Virus record (IMG/VR): IMGVR_UViG_3300017963_007659
Location: 96,001 to 160,000 of that record
Length of the DNA: 64,000 nt
Strand: one strand, 5' to 3'
Source: a virus
This document shows positions 25,839-37,500 of the stretch, piece by piece. The notes beneath the pieces were generated by a model. It worked only from the letters and a program-made list of their open reading frames with translations. It ran no database searches and had not been told where the DNA came from. The position numbers and the translations under genes are program-made. Each line of letters begins with the position of its first letter. The stretch's first letter is position 1.

Positions 25839-28800
25839 ATGCGATATCCGCAGTATCTTGCGTCGAACGAGTTGACTGCGCTCGGACGAAAGACTCTTCT
25901 GGACCGATACGCTCGCAAGGCACCGAAGACGGCACCCGTAGAGCTTGGAGACCTCGTCATCCTTTGCACAGACAAGGAGTCTGGACAGAGGGAGATTGGC
26001 AGCGTCATCGGAGTCAACAACGATGACCGGACCGTCAATATTCGCGCGGAAGATGGGGAAGAGTACACCGTCGATGTGGAGGAGGTAGACAAGCCTCTGG
26101 AGACGGATCCTCAAGATGTGGTCCAGCGTGTCGCTCGCGCCCTATCGAAGGTTGAGGAGAAGCCTCGTCGCTGGGAGAACATCTTCAAGAAGCTGATGGG
26201 CAACTGGAAGTTCGTTCCAGCTGGTCGCATTCTCACCGGAGCAGGTATCCAGCAAGAGACGCCGCTCACCTTCTTCAACTGCAACGTCATCCCAGCTCCC
26301 AAGGATAGCCGAGAAGGGATCATCGACACAGCAAAGATTCTCGCGGAGCTGTTCTCCCGTGGGGCTGGCGTCGGGACCTACCTCTCCTCTCTGCGTCCTC
26401 GCTTCGCCTACGTGAAGGGTGTCAACGGACGCTCTTCCGGGGCTGTGAGCTGGGGGTCTCTGTACTCGCATCTCACGGGGCTCATTGAGCAAGGAGGCTG
26501 CGTCACTGGAGAGACTCTTGTAGCTACGTCTAAGGGTGATTTTCCAATCAAGAATCTTGTAGGAACGACACCAGACGTCTATTCTTATGACTGCTCCACA
26601 GAAAGGACTGTGCTCAAAACAGCGAAGTGGGTGGGTAAGACCGGGGATAGTCAAAGAATCCTACGACTTACGACAACCCAGGGTCTTATTCTTGAAGCTA
26701 CTCCTGACCATCTCATCCTGTGTGCTGACAAAAAGTATCGTCCTCTACAAGAATTGGAGGTAGGGACGGCACTGAATGTCGAGAGTGCTTCTATCCACCA
26801 TGTCCAATCCGTAGAAGACTGTGGGGAAGAAGACGTTTACGATCTCGAAGTCCCTGATACTCACAATTTCTTTGTATTCTCGAAGGGTTGTAAAGAGGGT
26901 GTCTTCATACACAACTCCCGTCGCGGTGCCGCAATGCTCGTTCTACACGTCTGGCACCCGGATGTGTACGAGTTCATTGAGTGCAAGAGGGAGCCCAAAG
27001 CTAAGCAGCTCGCTCTCCTGGCTGACAAGCTCGAATACGGCTTTGGTCTCACGGAGTTCGCTCAAGAAGCCAGAGATCTCGCGGGGCAATGGCCAGCTCA
27101 CATCCAGCACGCCAATCTCTCGGTTGGAATCACAGACGATTTCATGGAAGCTGTTATTCACGATCGGGACTGGCAGCTCGTCTTTCCTGATACGACAGTT
27201 CCGGAGTACACAGAGAAGTGGGATGGGGACCTCAAGAAGTGGCAAGAGGAAGGTCATCCAATCAAAGTCCACAAGGTAGTCAAGGCGCGCGACCTGTGGA
27301 ACAAGCTCATGTACTCCGCGTGGGACTCGGCTGAGCCGGGAGTCATCTACATCGATACGGTCAACAGTGAGAGTACCTCATGGTGGTACTGCAACATGCT
27401 GGCGACGAACCCTTGCGGAGAGCAGCCTCTCCCGAGCTGGTACGGTGTCTGTAACCTTGGAGCAATCAATCTCCCTCGCTTCCTCATGGAGGATCCAGAC
27501 GACCCGAACAAAGTCATCCTTGACAAGGAAGCCTACAAGAATGCGATCCATGTCTCCATGCGCTTCCTGGACAACGTTATCGACACCACTCCCTACTTCT
27601 TCGATGAGCAAGAATACAATGCGAAGCGTGAGCGTCGAGTTGGCTTGAGTCCCTTCATGGGGCTTGCCGAAGCTCTGGTCATTCTTGGTATTCGCTATGG
27701 GTCTGAGGAGGCGGTAGACTTCGTGGAGGAGGCTGGCTTGGTCGCGGCTTCAGAGTCCCTCAGAGCCAGCGTGGACCTCGCAGAAGAGAAGGGCTGCTGT
27801 GATGTGTTGGCTACTCCAGAGGACCGGGAGAAGTTCTTGGAGAGTCTGTATGTGCAACGTATTCTCCGGTATCTGCCTCCAGAGGACAACCAGGACTTGC
27901 AGTCACGGATTCGTGAGCATGGAGCCAGGAACGTGAGCTTCACGACCTCAGCGCCTACCGGGACCATCGGGACCATGGTGGCAACGTCTACCGGAATCGA
28001 GCCCTTCTTTCGTTTCGAGTACCGCCAGAACACCAATCTCGGAACCCATATCAAACGAGAGCGTGTTCTGGATGAATGGTATAGGCAACACGGTGAGAGC
28101 GCTGCTGTTCCGGATTACTTCGTGAGCGCTGGGGAGCTGACTCCAAAAGAGCACCTCGTCATGACTGCTGCGCTCCAGCGGTGGATTGACTCAGGTATCA
28201 GTAAGACCTACAACCTACCACAGGAGTATACACCAGAGGACATCGGAAAGATCTACATGGAGATCTGGAAACGTCGATGTAAGGGAGGCACGGTCTTCCG
28301 TGAAGGGTCTCGTACCGTTCAGGTTCTTGAGAGTCTCGACCCCAAGGAGAAGAAGACGTTCGAGATGAGCTTCCCGGAGAAGACTCCTGGACCGCCGAAG
28401 GGGGACAAGAAAGATGGTTCCACGTGGTCCATCGACTCTCCCTCTGGTACCCTGCACGCTACGTTCAATCAGTATCCGACGCCAGACAACCCCTTCGAGA
28501 CATTCCTGAGAATTGGGAAGGCAGGCTCTGATGTTGGAGCTATGACCGAAGCTTTCGGACGTGTCATCTCCCTCTTCCTCCAGATGAGAGGTCCAATCCG
28601 GCCCACAAGACGCTGTGAGCTTCTTGTCGAGCAGCTTGAGGGGATCGGTGGTCGAGACCAGGTTGGCTTCGGTCCAAATAAGATTCGTTCGATCCCTGAT
28701 GCGATTGCTAAGTCGATAAGTCGACATTTGCAGTCAATAGTAGGTAGGGACGATGACTTGTCATGCTCAGAAGATGAAGAAGAGAAACCAGCTTCAACTC

Positions 28801-28895
28801 ATGGCTTGGATATGTGTCCCGAGTGTGGTAATCTCGGATTGCGGTCGGAGGAAGGGTGCACGAGCTGCGCCTTCTGCGGCTATAGCAAATGCTGA
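25839..28895 (+). CDS. nrdJ: Class II (B12-dependent) ribonucleotide reductase with mini-intein and C-terminal Zn ribbon
   Basis: FVPAGRIL, FFNCNV, SRRGAAM, ATNPCGEQPL, CNLGAINL, RRVGL, SAPTGTIG, CPECG...CAFCGYSKC; single chain with no small subunit nearby. Confidence 0.95.
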   Translation: MRYPQYLASNELTALGRKTLLDRYARKAPKTAPVELGDLVILCTDKESGQREIGSVIGVNNDDRTVNIRAEDGEEYTVDVEEVDKPLETDPQDVVQRVARALSKVEEKPRRWENIFKKLMGNWKFVPAGRILTGAGIQQETPLTFFNCNVIPAPKDSREGIIDTAKILAELFSRGAGVGTYLSSLRPRFAYVKGVNGRSSGAVSWGSLYSHLTGLIEQGGCVTGETLVATSKGDFPIKNLVGTTPDVYSYDCSTERTVLKTAKWVGKTGDSQRILRLTTTQGLILEATPDHLILCADKKYRPLQELEVGTALNVESASIHHVQSVEDCGEEDVYDLEVPDTHNFFVFSKGCKEGVFIHNSRRGAAMLVLHVWHPDVYEFIECKREPKAKQLALLADKLEYGFGLTEFAQEARDLAGQWPAHIQHANLSVGITDDFMEAVIHDRDWQLVFPDTTVPEYTEKWDGDLKKWQEEGHPIKVHKVVKARDLWNKLMYSAWDSAEPGVIYIDTVNSESTSWWYCNMLATNPCGEQPLPSWYGVCNLGAINLPRFLMEDPDDPNKVILDKEAYKNAIHVSMRFLDNVIDTTPYFFDEQEYNAKRERRVGLSPFMGLAEALVILGIRYGSEEAVDFVEEAGLVAASESLRASVDLAEEKGCCDVLATPEDREKFLESLYVQRILRYLPPEDNQDLQSRIREHGARNVSFTTSAPTGTIGTMVATSTGIEPFFRFEYRQNTNLGTHIKRERVLDEWYRQHGESAAVPDYFVSAGELTPKEHLVMTAALQRWIDSGISKTYNLPQEYTPEDIGKIYMEIWKRRCKGGTVFREGSRTVQVLESLDPKEKKTFEMSFPEKTPGPPKGDKKDGSTWSIDSPSGTLHATFNQYPTPDNPFETFLRIGKAGSDVGAMTEAFGRVISLFLQMRGPIRPTRRCELLVEQLEGIGGRDQVGFGPNKIRSIPDAIAKSISRHLQSIVGRDDDLSCSEDEEEKPASTHGLDMCPECGNLGLRSEEGCTSCAFCGYSKC
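26499..26915 (+). mobile_element. Mini-intein (139 aa, no homing endonuclease) in nrdJ
   Basis: QGG|CVTGETLV...ATPDH...DVYDLEVPDTHNF...FIHN|SRRGA. Confidence 0.95.
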
Positions 28896-28901
28896 GGTGC
28901 T

Positions 28902-29183
28902 ATGAAAGGGAACCGAATGATTCTGACGTCTTACGAATGGGGTGAGCGCATCGACTACTTCATCCAAGAGGTGGAGAGCAATAGCACTCACCCCGTATCG
29001 ATGATGGCTGACCTCGCTTTCTTGTATCGCCACATCGATGGGGAAGTGTTCGAGAGGTCAGAAGAGAACAATGATCGAGTCGACAGGTTGGTGGAGGCGT
29101 GCACGGTTGCAGGCGTCTCCATCGATGGTGTGGCTAAGATTGTGGAACAACAACGGTTTTTTGAAGCTAAGAGGAGAAGCTGA
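28902..29183 (+). CDS. Hypothetical protein
   Basis: GAGG RBS. Confidence 0.65.
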   Translation: MKGNRMILTSYEWGERIDYFIQEVESNSTHPVSMMADLAFLYRHIDGEVFERSEENNDRVDRLVEACTVAGVSIDGVAKIVEQQRFFEAKRRS

Positions 29184-29515
29184 TGGGGAAAATAAAGTAC
29201 GGCAACAAGAAAAGTCACGGTGGTGCGATGGCAAAAGCCATGGTCGTTGGGATGGAGAAGAGGCATGCTCACGCGCAGACGGCGAAGCGAAAGAGGATCT
29301 TCAGTAGATTCATGAAGACAGAGAAGGGTCGGCAGGTCGCGGCGCAGATTGAAGCTGGAGCCCTCCCTGCCGAGAGCATCGAAGTCGATGGCAACAACAT
29401 CGAAGTCAAGGCGACCGTCAATCCAGAGGTTGCAGAGGACACTTCCTCCGATGAAGGCTCAGAAAACGAGTCAAAGGATCAGGAGGAGGAAGGCGATGAG
29501 CGAACGGAAGATTGA
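29183..29515 (+). CDS. Hypothetical protein (basic N-terminus, acidic C-terminus)
   Basis: TGATG overlap with the upstream gene. Confidence 0.7.
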   Translation: MGKIKYGNKKSHGGAMAKAMVVGMEKRHAHAQTAKRKRIFSRFMKTEKGRQVAAQIEAGALPAESIEVDGNNIEVKATVNPEVAEDTSSDEGSENESKDQEEEGDERTED

Positions 29516-29828
29516 CTTCGTTGACGGTGATGTCGTGCTGTTCCTGTCTGGAGGCGTGGCGGTTCGCCGAGATGGTGTGGGGATGTATCGGGTGGATATC
29601 CGAGATGAGCCACATACCATCCAAATCTACTACCATGCAGGTGTTGGCTTTATCAACATAAACGATAACAGTCGTGACACAAGGATGCGCCTGCTTCTTC
29701 CGAGGGGGCTTGGGTCCAATCTTGAAGACGATATCGTCAGTGCTATGCTGGAGTTGGAGATCCTCTCTCAGATCAACAGCGACAAGGCTCAGAAGGGCAA
29801 GCTGCCTGACGGTTGGGCGAAGAAATGA
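29496..29828 (+). CDS. Hypothetical protein
   Basis: AGGAGG RBS before MSERKIDF. Confidence 0.65.
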   Translation: MSERKIDFVDGDVVLFLSGGVAVRRDGVGMYRVDIRDEPHTIQIYYHAGVGFININDNSRDTRMRLLLPRGLGSNLEDDIVSAMLELEILSQINSDKAQKGKLPDGWAKK

Positions 29829-30035
29829 CCTCTTCCAACGAGAAGTCCTATCGTGCCGTTGAGATGGCTAAGGTGTCTGCGCGCTATCGTCTCCGACTCG
29901 TCCGTAAGGTCATTGAAAAGCTAGACAAGAAAGCCTCAAGTAGAACCTCCGTTTCCGCACACTAACACCTCCTACGTTACTATGCGGTTCCACTGTTATC
30001 GAAATCCAGTCAAAGTACAGTAAGTGAGAAGACAG

Positions 30036-30515
30036 ATGGCAAACAAAGAGGAAGAGCTGTACTACATTCAGGACACACGCAGTGTGGTAGGAGACTGCGT
30101 TCTGTGGTGGGGTCCAGACGGCAATGGCTACACCCTCAATATCGAAAGGGCTGGCCTATACACCTACAAGCAGGCGTCGAGCCATCGGGAAACCGACGTT
30201 CCTTGGCCAAAGTCCATGGTCGACAGCCTCATCTCTTCTCATGTGCATATCGACAGCTTGAGAACGGTTCCCACAGTTGAGGTCAAGCGGTGGAAAGGCG
30301 ATTGGTACAAAACCACACACCAGGTCGTCCGGACAACGGAAACGCAGATCCTCATTTCGTGCGGACAGCGAGAGGAGCGCTACAGTCGAAAGACGGGACG
30401 TCGCGTCGGAGCTTCCAAGCAAGGACTCCGGAGCGCGAGACTCCCGCGCATCGAAAAGAGAGAACTCAAGTGGCTTGAGTCGAGGCTCACGAACACGTGG
30501 AACAAAAAACGCTGA
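30036..30515 (+). CDS. Hypothetical phage protein
   Basis: YYIQDTRSVVGDCVLWWGPDGNGYT; CAGTCAAAGTA motif upstream. Confidence 0.7.
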   Translation: MANKEEELYYIQDTRSVVGDCVLWWGPDGNGYTLNIERAGLYTYKQASSHRETDVPWPKSMVDSLISSHVHIDSLRTVPTVEVKRWKGDWYKTTHQVVRTTETQILISCGQREERYSRKTGRRVGASKQGLRSARLPRIEKRELKWLESRLTNTWNKKR

Positions 30516-30561
30516 AGTTTTGAGAGCAATTCTCAAAGAAAGGTAGTCAAAGTATATTGTC

Positions 30562-31743
30562 ATGAAGGTTTATCGCTCGACACGCTGTACCTTGAAGTAC
30601 ACCAATCCACACAAGCTGGACATCTTGTCTGAGATTATAGACGAGTACGGCAGGGTGGTGCGGTTGTACATCGACTTGTTCTGGGAAAAGTCGCGATACC
30701 TTCATAATAATGACCTCTTGAAGCCTGTCATCGAATCAATCCCTCCGACGTGGCTGGGATATAAATTCAAAAGGGACGCGGCTCGTGAGGCTCTGCGAAA
30801 CATCCGGTCTATAACGAATAGACCAGGGACGCCACAAAAGAAGCCGAACTATAAAGGGCGGTCAATGACTCTCCATTTTGACACCGCCTATCTGACGGAC
30901 TCCAAAAAGACAGATTCTTTTGACGCCTGGTTTAGATTGCGTGGAGTTGGGAAGTATTCGGATACAGGAGAGGGGATATGCATCGCTTTTCCTATAAAAT
31001 TCCACAAGCATTTCAATCAATTGAGCGCCAAAGGAAGGCGCGTCAATACTATCCATGTCTATCGGGACTCAGTACAATTCATCTTTGAACTTGAGACCGG
31101 GGAGAAGAGGACCAAGGGCAAGCAGGTCGGAGTCTACACAAATGGGGAGACTCTTGCCACTATCTCCGATGGCACGAAGTACGGTACGGACATCGGACGC
31201 TATGTCGATCGTGTACAAAGATGCGTGCCTGGGTCAAAGGGCCACAGGAAGGCGCAGCGAGCGCTCAAACAGCGTCTGAATGAAGTAGTCAAAGAAATTG
31301 GGCGTAAGCATGTCAAGCTCTTTGTGCTTGAGCGTGCCAAACCCAAGAAGGATGCGATAGGCGGACGTTGCTCGCCAGAAAACAAGCAACGATCTCTCGG
31401 TATCTGGGCATACACCTACTGGTTGGAGAGGTTTCATAGAGAGTGTGAGATGAGACGTTCTCGCTTTCGCTCTACCGCTCCTGTATATACCAAGACGTGT
31501 TGTTCAGCATGTGGAAGTACCGAGAGGAGTAATCTGTCCGGTGAAACGTTCCTGTGTACCACATGTGGTCATAGGAGCAAAGCAGCAGTGAACGTTGCTC
31601 AAAACACTTTGGACAGGTATCTCTCTGGACCCTACGGTGCCAGATTCAAACCCGGACGCTCTGGAAAACGAGGTCAGGGAACGGTATTTGTACAATCGCC
31701 TATCTCTCAAAAACAGGGATCGACGAAAGGACTACAAGAATGA
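30562..31743 (+). CDS. tnpB: TnpB-derived protein with inactivated RuvC (TldR-like, nuclease-dead)
   Basis: TnpB architecture; RuvC-I GVYTNG (D to Y), RuvC-II FVLE kept, Zn finger CSAC...CTTC intact, RuvC-III KAAVNVAQN (D to A); no tnpA. Confidence 0.85.
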   Translation: MKVYRSTRCTLKYTNPHKLDILSEIIDEYGRVVRLYIDLFWEKSRYLHNNDLLKPVIESIPPTWLGYKFKRDAAREALRNIRSITNRPGTPQKKPNYKGRSMTLHFDTAYLTDSKKTDSFDAWFRLRGVGKYSDTGEGICIAFPIKFHKHFNQLSAKGRRVNTIHVYRDSVQFIFELETGEKRTKGKQVGVYTNGETLATISDGTKYGTDIGRYVDRVQRCVPGSKGHRKAQRALKQRLNEVVKEIGRKHVKLFVLERAKPKKDAIGGRCSPENKQRSLGIWAYTYWLERFHRECEMRRSRFRSTAPVYTKTCCSACGSTERSNLSGETFLCTTCGHRSKAAVNVAQNTLDRYLSGPYGARFKPGRSGKRGQGTVFVQSPISQKQGSTKGLQE

Positions 31744-32087
31744 CCTACTGTTGTCCTCTATGTGACCTGGAGATCACCAAGGACCGTCCGTACTGTAGCA
31801 ACATGTACTGCACCGTCGGCTACTACAACTGTCTATCCATGAACTGTCTATCCATGCCAGATGCTCCAGACATGGAGGATGTCGACAATCCTCTGGATAA
31901 ACGGGAAGCTCTCAATCGAAAGCAGGGTTCCTATTTTGGAGTGGATGCGGCTTCTCAGTGGCTACTGGAGAGAGCAGCATATTCTTTCACGAAGAATCAG
32001 GATGACACAGCGCGCACTCTCAGGGAGGCAGCTACCCTGATGCGTGACTCCAAGAAGGATATCCTCGCAGACTCGAACGAAGGGTAA
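31740..32087 (+). CDS. Hypothetical Cys-rich protein
   Basis: ATGA overlap; CCPLC...YCSNMYC. Confidence 0.65.
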   Translation: MTYCCPLCDLEITKDRPYCSNMYCTVGYYNCLSMNCLSMPDAPDMEDVDNPLDKREALNRKQGSYFGVDAASQWLLERAAYSFTKNQDDTARTLREAATLMRDSKKDILADSNEG

Positions 32088-32143
32088 GTCCTCGGTTATT
32101 GTGATTTAGGGGCATTTTACGCCTCTGGACACAACGAGGCTTC

Positions 32144-33160
32144 ATGGTTGCTACCAAACCACCGGACTACATCTACAAGGATATTCCCCGATCCACCGCT
32201 GAAGCTGTTCAGAACAACGCCTATGAGGAGTCCCTCGTCCTCGTCAAGTCCGCCATCCAGCACTACCTTAATCAGTTTTTCGATTCAGATGGGAAGTATC
32301 GAAGACTTGTAGAGTCTGTGTGCCCAACTGTAGGACAATTCGTTACAGACGTTCGTGTCCCTCGGCCTGGAGAATACGAAGACCCAACAAAGTACAAAAT
32401 TCAGATCGCTCGGATGTGGCAAGGTCTCAAGCAGCGTCTTCCTTGCATCGTCATTGCGGAGACTGGCTGGACTCGTCAGAACTCTCTGAGTGACATCTCG
32501 GGTGGTATCTCCGTGCCGGGGACCGATGGGCTCCAGCACTCTCCGTTGTGGCTCAGCAACTTCCTCATGGGGAGCATCGATATTCTTGTAGGGGCGTTGG
32601 ATGAACATACGACAGGGCAGATAACTTCCCAACTTATCAATATCTTTGGGCCTTTGAAGGAGTTCACCAAAGAGACAATCTTGAAGCCGACGACACCTAC
32701 AGGTGGGTCAACCTGGGAAGTTCGGCTTCCGATGAATCAAACCATCAGCTCCAGAGAGCGAATCAACATCGGAGATGACCCTGTCTCGTCGCTGTGGTCG
32801 GCTACGCTGTCCTTGGATGACGTCCACTTCGAGGGGTCAACACCTCTCGATATGGAGGCTGCTGTTCCGACGGAGCCCGATTATGGTCCGAATACCCCTG
32901 TAGACAGCGATGACTTCCCTGACACCACAATCGTTGTTTCCTCTCCGGTTAAGTTGGGGAGAGCCCAACCATTCCGTGTAGTTAACGAACGCTACAGCGC
33001 CGTCATCTACAGCGACAATCCCCGTGTGGCACTGATACGGGGCTACACCATCATCCCTAGGAAAGTTGGTACATTTAATATAGTCGTGGCTAATGGTAAT
33101 AGTGTTGGTCTTGAGGCCGACATCTTTGCAAAGCAAGAGGTGTCTGTGGCACTTATATAG
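32144..33160 (+). CDS. Virion structural protein (neck/tail-completion-like) with Ig-like C-terminus; last 30 codons supplied by the TnpB element
   Basis: Position upstream of the sheath, LPCIVIAETG, beta-rich C-terminus, GGTTATT motif upstream. Confidence 0.6.
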   Translation: MVATKPPDYIYKDIPRSTAEAVQNNAYEESLVLVKSAIQHYLNQFFDSDGKYRRLVESVCPTVGQFVTDVRVPRPGEYEDPTKYKIQIARMWQGLKQRLPCIVIAETGWTRQNSLSDISGGISVPGTDGLQHSPLWLSNFLMGSIDILVGALDEHTTGQITSQLINIFGPLKEFTKETILKPTTPTGGSTWEVRLPMNQTISSRERINIGDDPVSSLWSATLSLDDVHFEGSTPLDMEAAVPTEPDYGPNTPVDSDDFPDTTIVVSSPVKLGRAQPFRVVNERYSAVIYSDNPRVALIRGYTIIPRKVGTFNIVVANGNSVGLEADIFAKQEVSVALI

Positions 33161-34402
33161 CTCAGAGAGGGTTAGATAGCTAGTAGGCGCATAGAGCAGC
33201 AATCACATAGAAATTTAATGTTTGTGGCACATAAAATAGCGTTATCTCCTACCCCAGATCAGGAGACGTACTTCAGGAAAGCAGCAGGTACAGCGCGCTT
33301 CGCTTATAATTGGGCTTTAGACCAATGGGTATCTCTTTACCGATTGGGAGAAAAGCCAAGTGAAGCTATGATCCGAAAAAACTTAAACAAGATCAAGTAT
33401 ATTGAATTCCCTTGGATGAAAGACGTTTCAAAAACGGTACCACAACAATCGATTAAAAATCTGGGAAAGGCTTTCAACAACTTTTTCAATAAGCGTGCTA
33501 AATACCCGAAATATAAGAAACTTGGGAGGCATGACGCATTCCGTGCGGATAATGGTCCTCAAACTAAAGGAGCCGATGCGGTCCAGGTTAATGGAAAATC
33601 AGTCGGCATACCAAAACTCGGCTGGGTACGAATGCGAGAAGCGCTTCGTTTTGAAGGCCAAATAAAGTCCGCTACGATCTCACGAAGAGCCCAGCGGTGG
33701 TACATCAGTTTTTTGGTTGATAGCCCGCTTTGCTCCTTCCAGCGCGAAAACCAAGCAGTTGGAGGAGTAGACCTTGGTCTTCGTTGGATGGCTGTTACAA
33801 GCGATGGTGTCTTCTATGAGAATCCGAAGCCGCTGAAAGCTAACTTGAGGAAGCTTAAGAGACTACAGCGACAACTTCGCAACAAGAAGAAGGGGTCGAA
33901 CAGACGGACGCGACTCCAACATCGGATCGCGGAGCTTCATGTGAGAATCGCTGATATCAGAAAAGATGCTCTGCATAAGGCGACGACATCCTTGGTTAGA
34001 GATTACTCTACAATTGTTATCGAAGACCTAAATGTAGTGGGGATGCTGAAGAATCGTTATCTCTCCAGAGCTGTCTCGGATGTGGGATTGTACGAATTCC
34101 GTCGTCAACTTGAGTACAAAGCGAAGTGGTATGGGACAAAAGTCCTCTTAGCAGATCGTTGGTTCCCTTCCAGCAAACTCTGTTCGTGTTGTGGCTATAA
34201 GTACTCAGAACTAAAGCTTGGAATGGAATCGTGGGTGTGTCCTGTCTGTAAGACAGAGCATGATAGAGACCGGAACGCAGCTATCAATCTACGGGAAGTT
34301 CTCCCGGAAGTTACGCACGTGGAGACCACGTCCTCTACTTCTCTAGCTGGACTAGAGAAGCAAGGCAGGTCGATGAAGCGTGAACTTGTTGAAAGAGAAC
34401 GG
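33068..34402 (+). mobile_element. Transposase-less IS607-type TnpB element carrying a recoded 3' end of its target gene
   Basis: Bounded by GG at 33068-69 and 34401-02; 33068-33160 and 34401-34493 encode the same 30-aa C-terminus (25/30 identical). Confidence 0.85.
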
Positions 34403-34411
34403 TACTTTTAA
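33218..34411 (+). CDS. tnpB: RNA-guided endonuclease TnpB, catalytically intact
   Basis: HTH AHKIALSPT...GTARFAYNWAL; RuvC GGVDLG, IVIEDLNV, HDRDRNAAINL; Zn finger CSCC...CPVC. Confidence 0.97.
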   Translation: MFVAHKIALSPTPDQETYFRKAAGTARFAYNWALDQWVSLYRLGEKPSEAMIRKNLNKIKYIEFPWMKDVSKTVPQQSIKNLGKAFNNFFNKRAKYPKYKKLGRHDAFRADNGPQTKGADAVQVNGKSVGIPKLGWVRMREALRFEGQIKSATISRRAQRWYISFLVDSPLCSFQRENQAVGGVDLGLRWMAVTSDGVFYENPKPLKANLRKLKRLQRQLRNKKKGSNRRTRLQHRIAELHVRIADIRKDALHKATTSLVRDYSTIVIEDLNVVGMLKNRYLSRAVSDVGLYEFRRQLEYKAKWYGTKVLLADRWFPSSKLCSCCGYKYSELKLGMESWVCPVCKTEHDRDRNAAINLREVLPEVTHVETTSSTSLAGLEKQGRSMKRELVERERYF

Positions 34412-34422
34412 CATAGTGGTTG
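34290..34422 (+). ncRNA. Predicted TnpB omegaRNA (scaffold 3' part + guide)
   Basis: Hairpins CGGGA/TCCCG, ACGTGG/CCACGT, CTTCTCTAG/CTAGAGAAG and GTCGATGAAGC overlapping the tnpB 3' end; guide predicted from about 34403; boundaries approximate. Confidence 0.6.
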
Positions 34423-34493
34423 CTGATGGCAACTCCACAGGGCTCGAAGCTAGAATTTTTGCAACTCAGGAAGTCTCTGTATCTCTCATATGA
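34401..34493 (+). pseudogene. Displaced original 3' end of gene 32144-33160
   Basis: Reads GTFNIVVADGNSTGLEARIFATQEVSVSLI-stop, with no start codon or RBS. Confidence 0.9.
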
Positions 34494-34597
34494 TCTGGTC
34501 GCACGGATGCGTCTTATAAAGACGACCTCTCTAGAGCGAGGTTATCTTTAGACGATATCGATGAAATTGACCAAATAAGAACGGAGCGTTCAGAACC

Positions 34598-37500
34598 ATG
34601 GCTGACGTCTTAGTCACATCACAATATGTGCTCCCAGGTTCGTACCTAGGAAGAATCTACACACCCAACGCCGGAACGCTGTCGGGCGACCCAAGACAAC
34701 CCTGTTACGTTGGGAAGGGTAGTCGACTTGCGACCGCAGCGAACGTTCCGATCCGCCGTGCGTTTTTGCAGGGAGAGGTCATCCCCTTCCCGCAGACGGT
34801 GCCGCACTTGGTAACTCTTGCGCACCCATCGGATGGCGACCAGACGTTGGCAACGATGACTACACAGTCGGGGGCTGTCATTCCAGCCTCGAAGTGGCAG
34901 TTCCAGAAGTCCGCTCCCGGTATCACAGGATACGACCAAATTCTGCTGTTGCCGGAAGCCTTCAACTCCACCTCGACCTACACTCTCGACTACCAGACCA
35001 TCGACCGAGATGTTGTCGATGATGTCCCGTTTGACGAGATGCGTCAAATGGTTAGAGTAGGCGACTACCAGGACCAGGATTTCTACTCCGAGCAGGTGGA
35101 CTACCGCGTTATCACCTCCAATACGGATCCAGTTCCGGACCCGACGGTGGCGAACGCGACGACTACGCTGTTCACTCCTGTTCAGCAGACGGCTACGGGT
35201 GGTGGTGCTCCGACTCCGACGGTCAATGTTGGTGCCACCTACACAGGGCAGCACAACAGGCACTATCGCTTTGAGGCGGTTGGGCTCGCACCGCTGACCT
35301 TCTTGGTGGACATCACCAACGAGGGTGGCGGCAACAACCTGACTCCGGACTATCCGGTAGGTCCGAACATCAGCGGGCTGACCTTCCCGGTCGCTATCGC
35401 GGGTGCTTACGACCTCGACTCTCAGATGGGGCTCACCTCTCTTGGTGTGCTAGTCGACCTCGACCCGGCTGACCCTGGTGTCTGGGCTGTTGGTGACGTT
35501 TTTGAGTTCAACGCGCTTGGACCGTCCGTCATCGAATTGGACCCAACCTACGACAACACCAACCAGTTCTCTTCGGTTTCTGCCCTCACAGCAGCGGCTG
35601 GAAATGGTGGAACTGGTACAGTGACACTGAACCCCAATACGGACTTCACGGGATCGACGAACAAAGATGTGCGCATCGAATGTGCCTCCTTTGCTGGTCT
35701 GTCTCCGAACCGAACCGCTCTCTTCGATTGGCAGACCTACGGGGCTGATGCGATTGAGAAGGGATCGATTCTTGTAGATGAGTCTGTCGCGGGGAACCTG
35801 ATCAACCGAACGGTAGCCGATGGAATCTCTGTCGACTTCGACTTCGGCACGGATGCTGGTGGAAACAGCGCGAACTTCGTTTTTGCGGCTGGTATCATCA
35901 CCTTCGATGCGGGTACAGGTACCTTCACTCCTAGCATGGTTGGTCGGCAGATCACCATCGTTGGAGCCACTACCCCTGCGAATGATGGTACCTTCGTCAT
36001 CGCTTCCTATATCTCTCCAACACAAATCACCTACGCCAACGCTCTTGGTGTAACCGAGGTTGGAGCAGGTACCTGGGTTGTGGAAGGTTTCTTCGTTCCG
36101 ACCTCAGCGACGACACAGGGCGACCTCTTCACGACGGCTGCTACTGCCCCCATGCTCTATTACACGGGTAAGGACGACCGAGAGTACACTCTGGAGGTCA
36201 CAGCAGCTACGTCTACTCCGTTCACCGCAGTGACTGGTGTTGCGATTGCTCCAACGAATACGTTCGACGTCGCAACGGATCTCACGACAGCCATCGCGCT
36301 TCATCCGAACATTCGGGTCGAAGGTTCGACGGGCAACGACAATCTCTATACGGTCCAGTCCACCTCCTACGATTCTGGAACGGACACCACGACTATCACC
36401 ACAGTCGAGAACGTCCCGAATGCCGTAGCAGATGGAAACCTCTGGTACGGAACAGGCGCAGCGTCCATCTTCTGGTCGACAGCTACTCCTGAAGGTGGTT
36501 TCGGTACCCTTTCTCTGTTGGATAACGACACGGCTTCACCGCTCGCCGATGAGATCAAGTTCTATGTCCGAAACTCTGGAAATCCGCTGCTTCGCTCGGA
36601 TGCTCAGAATCAGAGAAACGTCATCGCAGACGTCTGGACCTTCACGGTTACGAATGAGGATGAGATCTCTTGGACGCTCGCAGCGCGCGAGACGGAGACC
36701 ATCGCTGTAGCGGACCTTCGACAAGATACCACGGGTTCCATCACAGGAGCTTCTGGTGGCGTTCCTGGCACGCGTTACCTCATCCTTGAGCAAACTCCTA
36801 CGATCCAGCCTCTTCGAGTGTGGACGACCAACCCGACGACCAGTGTCACCACTGAGCTGACGGTTGCAACGACACCTCCCTATGTCGCTGGTTCGGACGC
36901 CTACTGGATCACCGGGACACCGTACATCTTCTTCCCGACGACTCCGACTGAGCCTGTCTCGGTCACCTACCAGCACAGAGCGTTGGAGCCGGATCCTGGA
37001 CAGGTCTACTACATCACGTCGTACTACCTGCGACCCCTCAACTTCTACAACAACCCGATTCGGTTGCTGAACGAAGACGAGGCGATCTCGGTTCTCGGTC
37101 CCATGGACCCCGAGAACGACCTTCTCATCATGGCTCTCGTTGCCCTGGTGGACTGCAACGCCTTCGCTGTTTGGGTCACGCAGGTTCGAGACACAGACGA
37201 TGACGGTGTGTATACCACATACGACTACAACACGGCTATTGAAGCCACAGAGCTGAATGACCAACTCACGGACATCACAGTTCTACAGAACTTCGATTCG
37301 CTGTCCAAGCTGAAGACGTCTGTCATCCAGATGAACGACCCCTTCGAGCGGAAGCAGCGTCTGTGCTGGGTTGGAGCCCCCATTGGGACAGAGATTGGCG
37401 ATACCGACACTCCGGACACTTTGGTCTACTTGGCCAAGAGAACGCTCCAGGTGTACGGTGAGAGCCCCGCGCACGGTGCCTTCATTCTTGTAGGCAACAC

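Follow-up and report, generated by a model that had tools for sequence, protein, structure and literature searches.

A TnpB homologue with two of three RuvC carboxylates replaced and a recognisable guide-RNA scaffold in a large uncultured marine phage

P0001 (30562-31743, plus strand) is a 393-aa homologue of the nuclease TnpB, encoded by a marine phage that is large and uncultured. Two of its three RuvC catalytic residues are replaced (Y192/E257/A342 for D-E-D), and the guide-RNA scaffold and right end of an IS607-type element can still be recognised within its ORF. We give about an even chance to the reading that P0001 is a solo IS607-type TnpB degenerating after its fixation, with the reading frame still open. 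What we observe, and document below, is its family, its dead triad, a right end and a scaffold that have been kept, its status as a singleton and the lack of the gene in related phages. The original prediction, made from the letters alone, had been of a nuclease-dead TnpB domesticated under a phage promoter as a TldR-like regulator. A TnpB fold with a dead RuvC centre, without a transposase and behind a phage promoter-like motif, was indeed recovered; domestication as a TldR-like regulator was not borne out.

The analysed window is a 64-kb stretch (positions 96001-160000) of the 186-kb IMG/VR record G000, and coordinates are those of the window unless a locus is named. IMG/VR classes the record as 'provirus' with a completeness of about 50%, so that the earlier description of the phage as lytic is not established; its GC content is 52%. 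Neither a Y1 transposase, nor a serine recombinase, nor a tyrosine integrase was found in this roughly half-complete record, in line with the predicted absence of tnpA. A nucleotide search of 29000-35000 against GenBank phages matched nothing, and Rfam returned nothing relevant for 29000-36000. P0001 is carried by seven metagenome contigs with the same neighbours, and the protein is identical in all seven; two of the contigs (L001, L002) are base-for-base identical to the window, and the identical P0001 sequence occurs in samples of two studies with marine sediment and seawater metagenomes. With window, L001 and L002 identical and the nearest homologues at about 43% identity, the material represents one genotype that carries no population signal, and synonymous sites are saturated for dN/dS.

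Homology to TnpB was supported by profile and by structure, the check that had been proposed for the prediction. The family profile matched solved TnpB structures with E values of 1e-19 to 1e-23, and the AlphaFold model of P0001 (mean pLDDT 82) retrieved AsCas12f (E 5.7e-16) and ISDra2 TnpB (E 2e-12) in Foldseek; the modelled protein has a TnpB/Cas12f fold with the domain order WED-REC-RuvC-zinc finger. Taken alone, P0001 scores E 2.8e-5 against Pfam Cas12f1-like_TNB, under the curated cut-off, and 37.6 bits against NCBIfam guided_TnpB, where the cut-off is 100; its matches to PHROG 'transposase' families have E values of 1e-10 to 1e-12. The profile places the three catalytic columns on GVDVG, E and DRDEN of the solved ISDra2 TnpB, which we take to be the catalytic D191, E278 and D361 of that protein. 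In 25 of 25 aligned homologues (38-45% identity) these columns read G-I/V-D-T/S-G, Glu and N-A-D-x-N. P0001 has GVYTNG at RuvC-I, with the Tyr codon of Y192 at 31135-31137 where every relative has Asp, and KAAVN at RuvC-III, with the Ala codon of A342 at 31585-31587, again in place of Asp. The RuvC-II Glu (E257, 31330-31332) and the CxxC..CxxC zinc finger (C314/C317/C332/C335, 31501-31566) are kept, all of them in columns that are invariant in the alignment with the 25 homologues. The basic 'lid' segment (residues 262-277, 31345-31392) is degenerate: the family consensus K..KRRL.KN.RRS is mostly gone, and the segment, with a pLDDT below 50, is predicted to be disordered, as is the C-terminal tail (residues 366-393). 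On each of these points, namely the full-length frame, the two altered motifs and the retained Glu and zinc finger, the prediction had read the sequence correctly, and as far as aligned residues can tell, P0001 is confirmed as nuclease-dead, with two of its three RuvC carboxylates gone.

The dead state is rare in the clade. A word-indexed search of 5.8 billion proteins gave 26 full-length homologues at 35-45% identity, and an exhaustive HMMER search of 1.84 billion cluster representatives gave 937 relatives, the best non-self match being 43% identical; no orthologue above 45% identity was found among about 15 billion proteins. The best non-self match, at 43-45% identity, has D-E-D intact. The triad is likewise kept in all 71 viral homologous loci in which the region is present (two further loci end before RuvC-III) and in 136 of 138 full-length cluster representatives; the second of the two representatives without it looks like a frameshifted fusion. 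The clade survey of contigs used two search patterns, one of which required the Asp and one of which did not. Among the sequences surveyed, P0001 is the sole point-mutated dead member of its clade. A resolvase-type serine recombinase lies directly upstream of the homologue in 28 of the 71 loci from viral contigs and assemblies, which identifies the clade as IS607-type; in one bacterial assembly (L005) the resolvase-type gene overlaps the start of the P0001 homologue. The clade is frequent on large phage contigs of 100-600 kb. Across the family loci (L008-L079, besides L006 and L007), 43 of 71 have no transposase. Several near-identical copies differ in their flanks, a pattern that suggests mobility or homing in the absence of a local TnpA.

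What constitutes the mobile unit could be read from the relatives. Their similarity extends 4-52 nt beyond the stop codon, as far as a conserved ..(G)GAACGGT, and ends sharply there. A 241-kb IMG/VR phage holds two copies (L006:3001-4152 and L007:3001-4152) that are 94% identical from ATG to AACGGT and unrelated outside, and this confinement defines the unit as running from the start codon to AACGGT; no conserved left end beyond the ATG was found in the clade. By comparison with the relatives, the right end of the P0001 element is the AACGGT at 31680-31685, inside the frame. The ORF reads 58 nt beyond it, and in no relative does AACGGT lie inside the ORF. The P0001 frame has passed over the ancestral stop and beyond the end of the element, and it continues in the leader of the next gene. 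From this read-through come both the disordered tail and the ATGA overlap with that gene, and the overlap, as a by-product, is in itself no sign of integration into an operon.

The same end carries an omega-RNA-like scaffold. An RNAalifold consensus of the last ~170 nt of 48 non-redundant relatives has compensatory changes in 16 of its 25 pairs, the clearest case being a hairpin over the codons of a conserved GPYGA peptide. A covariance model built from the 48 relatives, with the window left out, found a single match in the 64-kb window, full-length, at 31526-31685 on the plus strand in the 3' part of the ORF, ending at AACGGT (82.1 bits, E 2.4e-13); this score falls within the 57-176 bits of catalytically intact relatives. 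The proximal hairpin (UCUGG..CCAGA) and the terminal composite hairpin (CCC-GAC-CUC / GAG-GUC-GGG) persist in changed letters. Pairing is lost at three of the seven positions of the outer helix and in a 3-bp hairpin over the RuvC-III codons. The folding energy of the 3' RNA is no better than that of shuffled sequences (z -0.48).

P0001 sits behind what looks like a phage promoter. The motif TAGTCAAAGTA at 30544-30554 (plus strand) lies 7 nt before the ATG, as the prediction had noted, and just outside the left boundary of the element. The window has 17 copies with at most one mismatch where 0.56 would be expected, a 30-fold over-representation, and most of them closely precede a start codon and share the strand of the gene. 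A one-mismatch copy, TAGTCAAAGAA, lies inside P0001 at 31286-31296 (plus strand), 240 nt upstream of the scaffold; it is probably fortuitous, since it coincides with the conserved peptide EVVKE, although an internal transcript from it could in principle cover the scaffold and the next gene. Elsewhere in the window a sigma-70-like module, TTGACA-N17-TAGTGT, is repeated and followed by a conserved leader containing ctcagttggttggagg (2210 on the minus strand; 2667, 9643, 10133, 10544 and 10943 on the plus strand), and these modules are probable early promoters, distinct from the TAGTCAAAGTA class. Downstream of P0001 follows a 115-aa Cys-rich ORF (31740-32087, plus strand), whose start shares the ATGA with the P0001 stop, as had been stated; AAGGA precedes its ATG by about 10 nt, and the only promoter-like motif that could serve it is the TAGTCAAAGTA ahead of P0001. 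The nearby active TnpB of the prediction is found at 33218-34411, a canonical TnpB of a different subfamily, with D-E-D intact and 16% identity to P0001.

Three related phage loci (L083, L084 and L085) place the insertion in one lineage. Their copies of the neighbouring 338-aa gene are 70-80% identical to that of the window, and they keep the order ribonucleotide reductase, 338-aa gene, gene of about 1180-1186 aa; a search of viral contigs for close relatives of the 338-aa neighbour itself found none. P0001, the 115-aa ORF and the second TnpB are all absent from these three loci, so that the insertion is specific to the lineage of the window's phage; the exact empty site is unreadable at their nucleotide identity of about 68%. 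The intact second TnpB (window 33096-34411) replaces the junction between the 338-aa and 1186-aa genes of the relatives (L083:8925-8953). The ribonucleotide reductase genes (window 25839-28895; L083:3204-6872) also differ in what has been inserted and where: the window is longer by about 420 nt at 26497-26919, and L083 by about 1 kb (an intein with an HNH domain by Pfam) where the window is continuous, at about 27415. These differences point to independent intein-type invasions.

The guide of P0001 is predicted, by analogy with the family, to be templated by the flank at 31686-31705 (plus strand), a stretch now translated as part of the C-terminal tail and belonging at the same time to the 5'-UTR of the next gene. 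No second target of it was found in the 186-kb record, where the best match has 4 mismatches in 20 (0.14 such matches expected by chance), two of them in the TAM-proximal half, and IMG/VR and the metagenome contigs hold no exact match. Among 185,579 species genomes there is one exact 20-mer match, with about one expected by chance. It lies at L087:4356-4375, on contig JBGCDT010000497.1 of a Saprospiraceae MAG, within 560 nt of intergenic DNA that follow a LuxR-type response-regulator gene; we give this site no weight as a target, the match being at chance level and the MAG having a GC content of 39% against the 52% of the phage. Inference of a TAM from 27 independent solo insertions yielded no usable consensus, the only signal being a weak preference for A at -4/-3. 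An 11-mer at 31731-31741, which starts 46 nt beyond the scaffold end, was considered as a guide against the -10 regions of the early promoters and rejected, its core ATTCTTGTAG being abundant genome-wide and mostly inside genes. This decamer occurs 65 times and ATTCTTGAAG 69 times on both strands of the 186 kb, with about 0.36 expected of each; ATTCTTGTAG together with its T/A variant has 134 copies genome-wide. The copies are mostly in genes and may be followed by any base, examples in the window being 7682, 8499, 9643, 18884, 31741 (minus strand) and 44673 (minus strand).

P0001 has diverged far and evenly. FastTree places it within a well-supported clade of 60 rows, on a terminal branch of 1.45 changes per site where sister rows have about 0.3-0.5, although the placement of so long a branch is uncertain. 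At columns that are at least 90% conserved it deviates in 38 of 114 (median 2), 76 of the 114 being still kept. The changed share is 42% in WED-N/REC, 41% in WED-C, 37% in RuvC-I/II, 40% in RuvC-III and 13% (2/15) in the zinc finger; judged by these columns, the RuvC centre has not been selectively degraded, nor the binding lobes selectively spared. A deep-branching, intact relative (L065) has a WED/REC divergence like that of P0001, but its RuvC-III is conserved. Codon usage lies at the 15th percentile of phage genes (z -1.1) and is uninformative on residence time. An open frame of 393 codons on so long a branch suggests that the frame has been under selection for most of that time, and gives no date, recent or old, for the catalytic losses.

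In the reading to which we give an even chance, a transposase-less copy of an IS607-family TnpB/omega-RNA element would have landed, in this lineage only, between a phage promoter and the next gene, and would have become fixed in the phage population, as the identical sequence in seven contigs from two studies suggests. With every genome of the population carrying it, no genome would offer an empty site for cutting any longer, and catalysis would cease to be selected for. The nuclease would have been lost afterwards through D192Y, D342A and degeneration of the lid, as is expected of a selfish homing-type element late in its course; in the homing-cycle model that Goddard and Burt are reported to have proposed in 1999, homing endonuclease genes degenerate in this way after fixation. 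What has held the frame open may be its position, since a premature stop between the promoter and a gene coupled to P0001 in translation would have polar effects. We infer this order of events and the lack of a function for P0001, a protein that probably has not evolved a new job. Several points count against decay. A frame of 393 codons without a stop or frameshift on a long branch speaks for selection having kept it, and large phages usually purge useless DNA. The hairpins, zinc finger, model confidence and scaffold score that are taken up below weigh in the same direction.

The alternative that survives best is a lineage-specific exaptation of the TldR type, which we regard as possible though clearly the less probable account. 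TldRs are TnpB-like, nuclease-dead repressors (Wiegand et al., bioRxiv 10.1101/2023.11.30.569447), and a phage-borne, fliC-associated TldR clade has been described (PMC13418256). P0001 would accordingly bind the RNA from 31526-31705 and occupy a TAM-flanked site without cutting it; the target could be an unoccupied promoter-proximal site in co-infecting relatives, or a site in the host, and the effect would be that transcription is blocked or the site protected. The replacement of two of three RuvC carboxylates, with fold, Glu and zinc finger remaining, is what such a protein would show, and the screen that found TldRs selected for at least two mutated DED residues (bioRxiv 10.1101/2023.11.30.569447). 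The scaffold with its proximal and terminal hairpins and its AACGGT end has been kept, partly by compensatory changes. A phage promoter-like motif precedes the ORF by 7 nt, coupling joins the ORF to the gene that follows, and the frame has stayed open along a long branch; phage-borne TldRs are known from temperate phages. Compensated hairpins, a nearly untouched zinc finger, a pLDDT of 82 and an 82-bit scaffold would also fit a protein that binds RNA and DNA. Against this stand the absence of a clade of dead orthologues, of a conserved new gene association and of the gene itself from related phages, features that, together with a right end and omega-RNA scaffold still recognisable as those of a transposon, speak against the 'domesticated' state of the original prediction. 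The regulator role that it proposed fares no better: the guide is mere flank, with no other target in the 186-kb record, no exact viral or metagenome match and a sole exact 20-mer among the species genomes at chance level in a 39% GC MAG; the scaffold has lost three of the seven pairs of its outer helix as well as its 3-bp hairpin; and conserved WED/REC residues have been lost as often as RuvC ones. In a more restricted form, which we rate as somewhat doubtful, the exaptation would be young and confined to this single lineage, the solo TnpB, expressed from a phage promoter, having stopped cutting but still loading its omega-RNA and binding the promoter-proximal empty site of co-infecting relatives or a host site.

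It seems improbable, by comparison, that the protein is dispensable and the locus retained for the sake of its RNA or of downstream gene expression. Transcripts from the upstream promoter, translated through P0001, would then bring ribosomes to the ATGA-coupled 115-aa gene or, alternatively, the structured 3' RNA would serve as an mRNA element. The ATGA overlap, the AAGGA about 10 nt before the downstream ATG, the position of the gene's only promoter-like motif ahead of P0001 and the fast, evenly spread amino-acid change in an open frame all agree with this. The 115-aa gene, however, has its own ribosome-binding-like sequence and does not require coupling, the kept zinc-finger cysteines and 76 of 114 conserved residues are not predicted by frame maintenance alone, and the folding-energy z-score of the 3' RNA is merely -0.48. 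Very unlikely indeed is a P0001 that still cuts through non-canonical residues such as E196, a candidate judged on sequence, four residues after Y192 and in place of the family's Asn, because, although alternate RuvC catalytic positions are documented in some TnpB/Fanzor proteins, two positions are lost rather than one, no acidic residue lies in or beside the RuvC-III motif HRSKAAVNVAQN (the family's flanking Asp is gone too), the lid is degenerate and changing any one DED residue abolishes TnpB activity (bioRxiv 10.1101/2023.11.30.569447).

Dead TnpBs, phage-borne ones included, are already known; P0001 is a new and isolated one from a different, IS607-type clade, in a large phage whose genome, in the half that is available, contains no integrase. 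From TldRs it is clear that a dead TnpB can turn into an RNA-guided transcription factor, and to our knowledge the earliest steps on the way from TnpB to TldR have not been seen. The P0001 locus is a clean case, in which the nuclease is gone and the guide-RNA scaffold and transposon end are in place. Either an exaptation is beginning here or a selfish element, once fixed, is decaying in the normal way, and since decay is likelier on present evidence, the value of the locus is mainly that of a test case. Were exaptation true, P0001 would be an RNA-guided blocker in phage-phage or phage-host conflict and would show how a selfish nuclease begins to turn into a TldR-type regulator, here in a phage without a seen integrase; demonstration of RNA loading and sequence-specific binding would raise its interest. 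A further result is the IS607-type TnpB clade itself, widespread on large phage contigs and with a mobile unit from start codon to AACGGT.

Set beside known systems, P0001 shares with IS607 TnpB/omega-RNA elements the fold and domain order, membership of a clade often preceded by a serine-recombinase TnpA, a scaffold overlapping the gene's 3' end and terminated by a conserved right end, and a flank-templated guide; it differs from them in its Y-E-A for D-E-D, in an ORF that reads through the right end, in a record without TnpA and in scores under the Pfam and NCBIfam cut-offs for TnpB. With TldRs it has in common descent from TnpB, mutation of at least two RuvC residues, the absence of tnpA, carriage by a phage and a guide-RNA scaffold adjoining or overlapping the gene. 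TldRs, however, form clades with conserved mutations, whereas P0001 is a single sequence of one genotype; they keep stable associations with accessory genes, whereas the 115-aa neighbour has been seen only with P0001; and their guides match a promoter, whereas no target was found in the phage record for that of P0001. They often have C-terminal truncations and no identifiable transposon ends, while P0001 has an intact zinc finger, a C-terminal extension and an identifiable right end and scaffold. The TnpB at 33218-34411 is, like P0001, a transposase-less insertion absent from related phages; unlike P0001 it belongs to a different subfamily (16% identity), gives strong Pfam and NCBIfam matches and has D-E-D intact. 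Intronless homing in phages has been reviewed (PMC13565253). Degenerating homing endonuclease genes are protein-guided, whereas the family of P0001 is RNA-guided and fixation of P0001 is read from seven identical contigs only; the likeness is that, in both, a fixed selfish phage nuclease would have lost its catalytic residues while its frame is still open.
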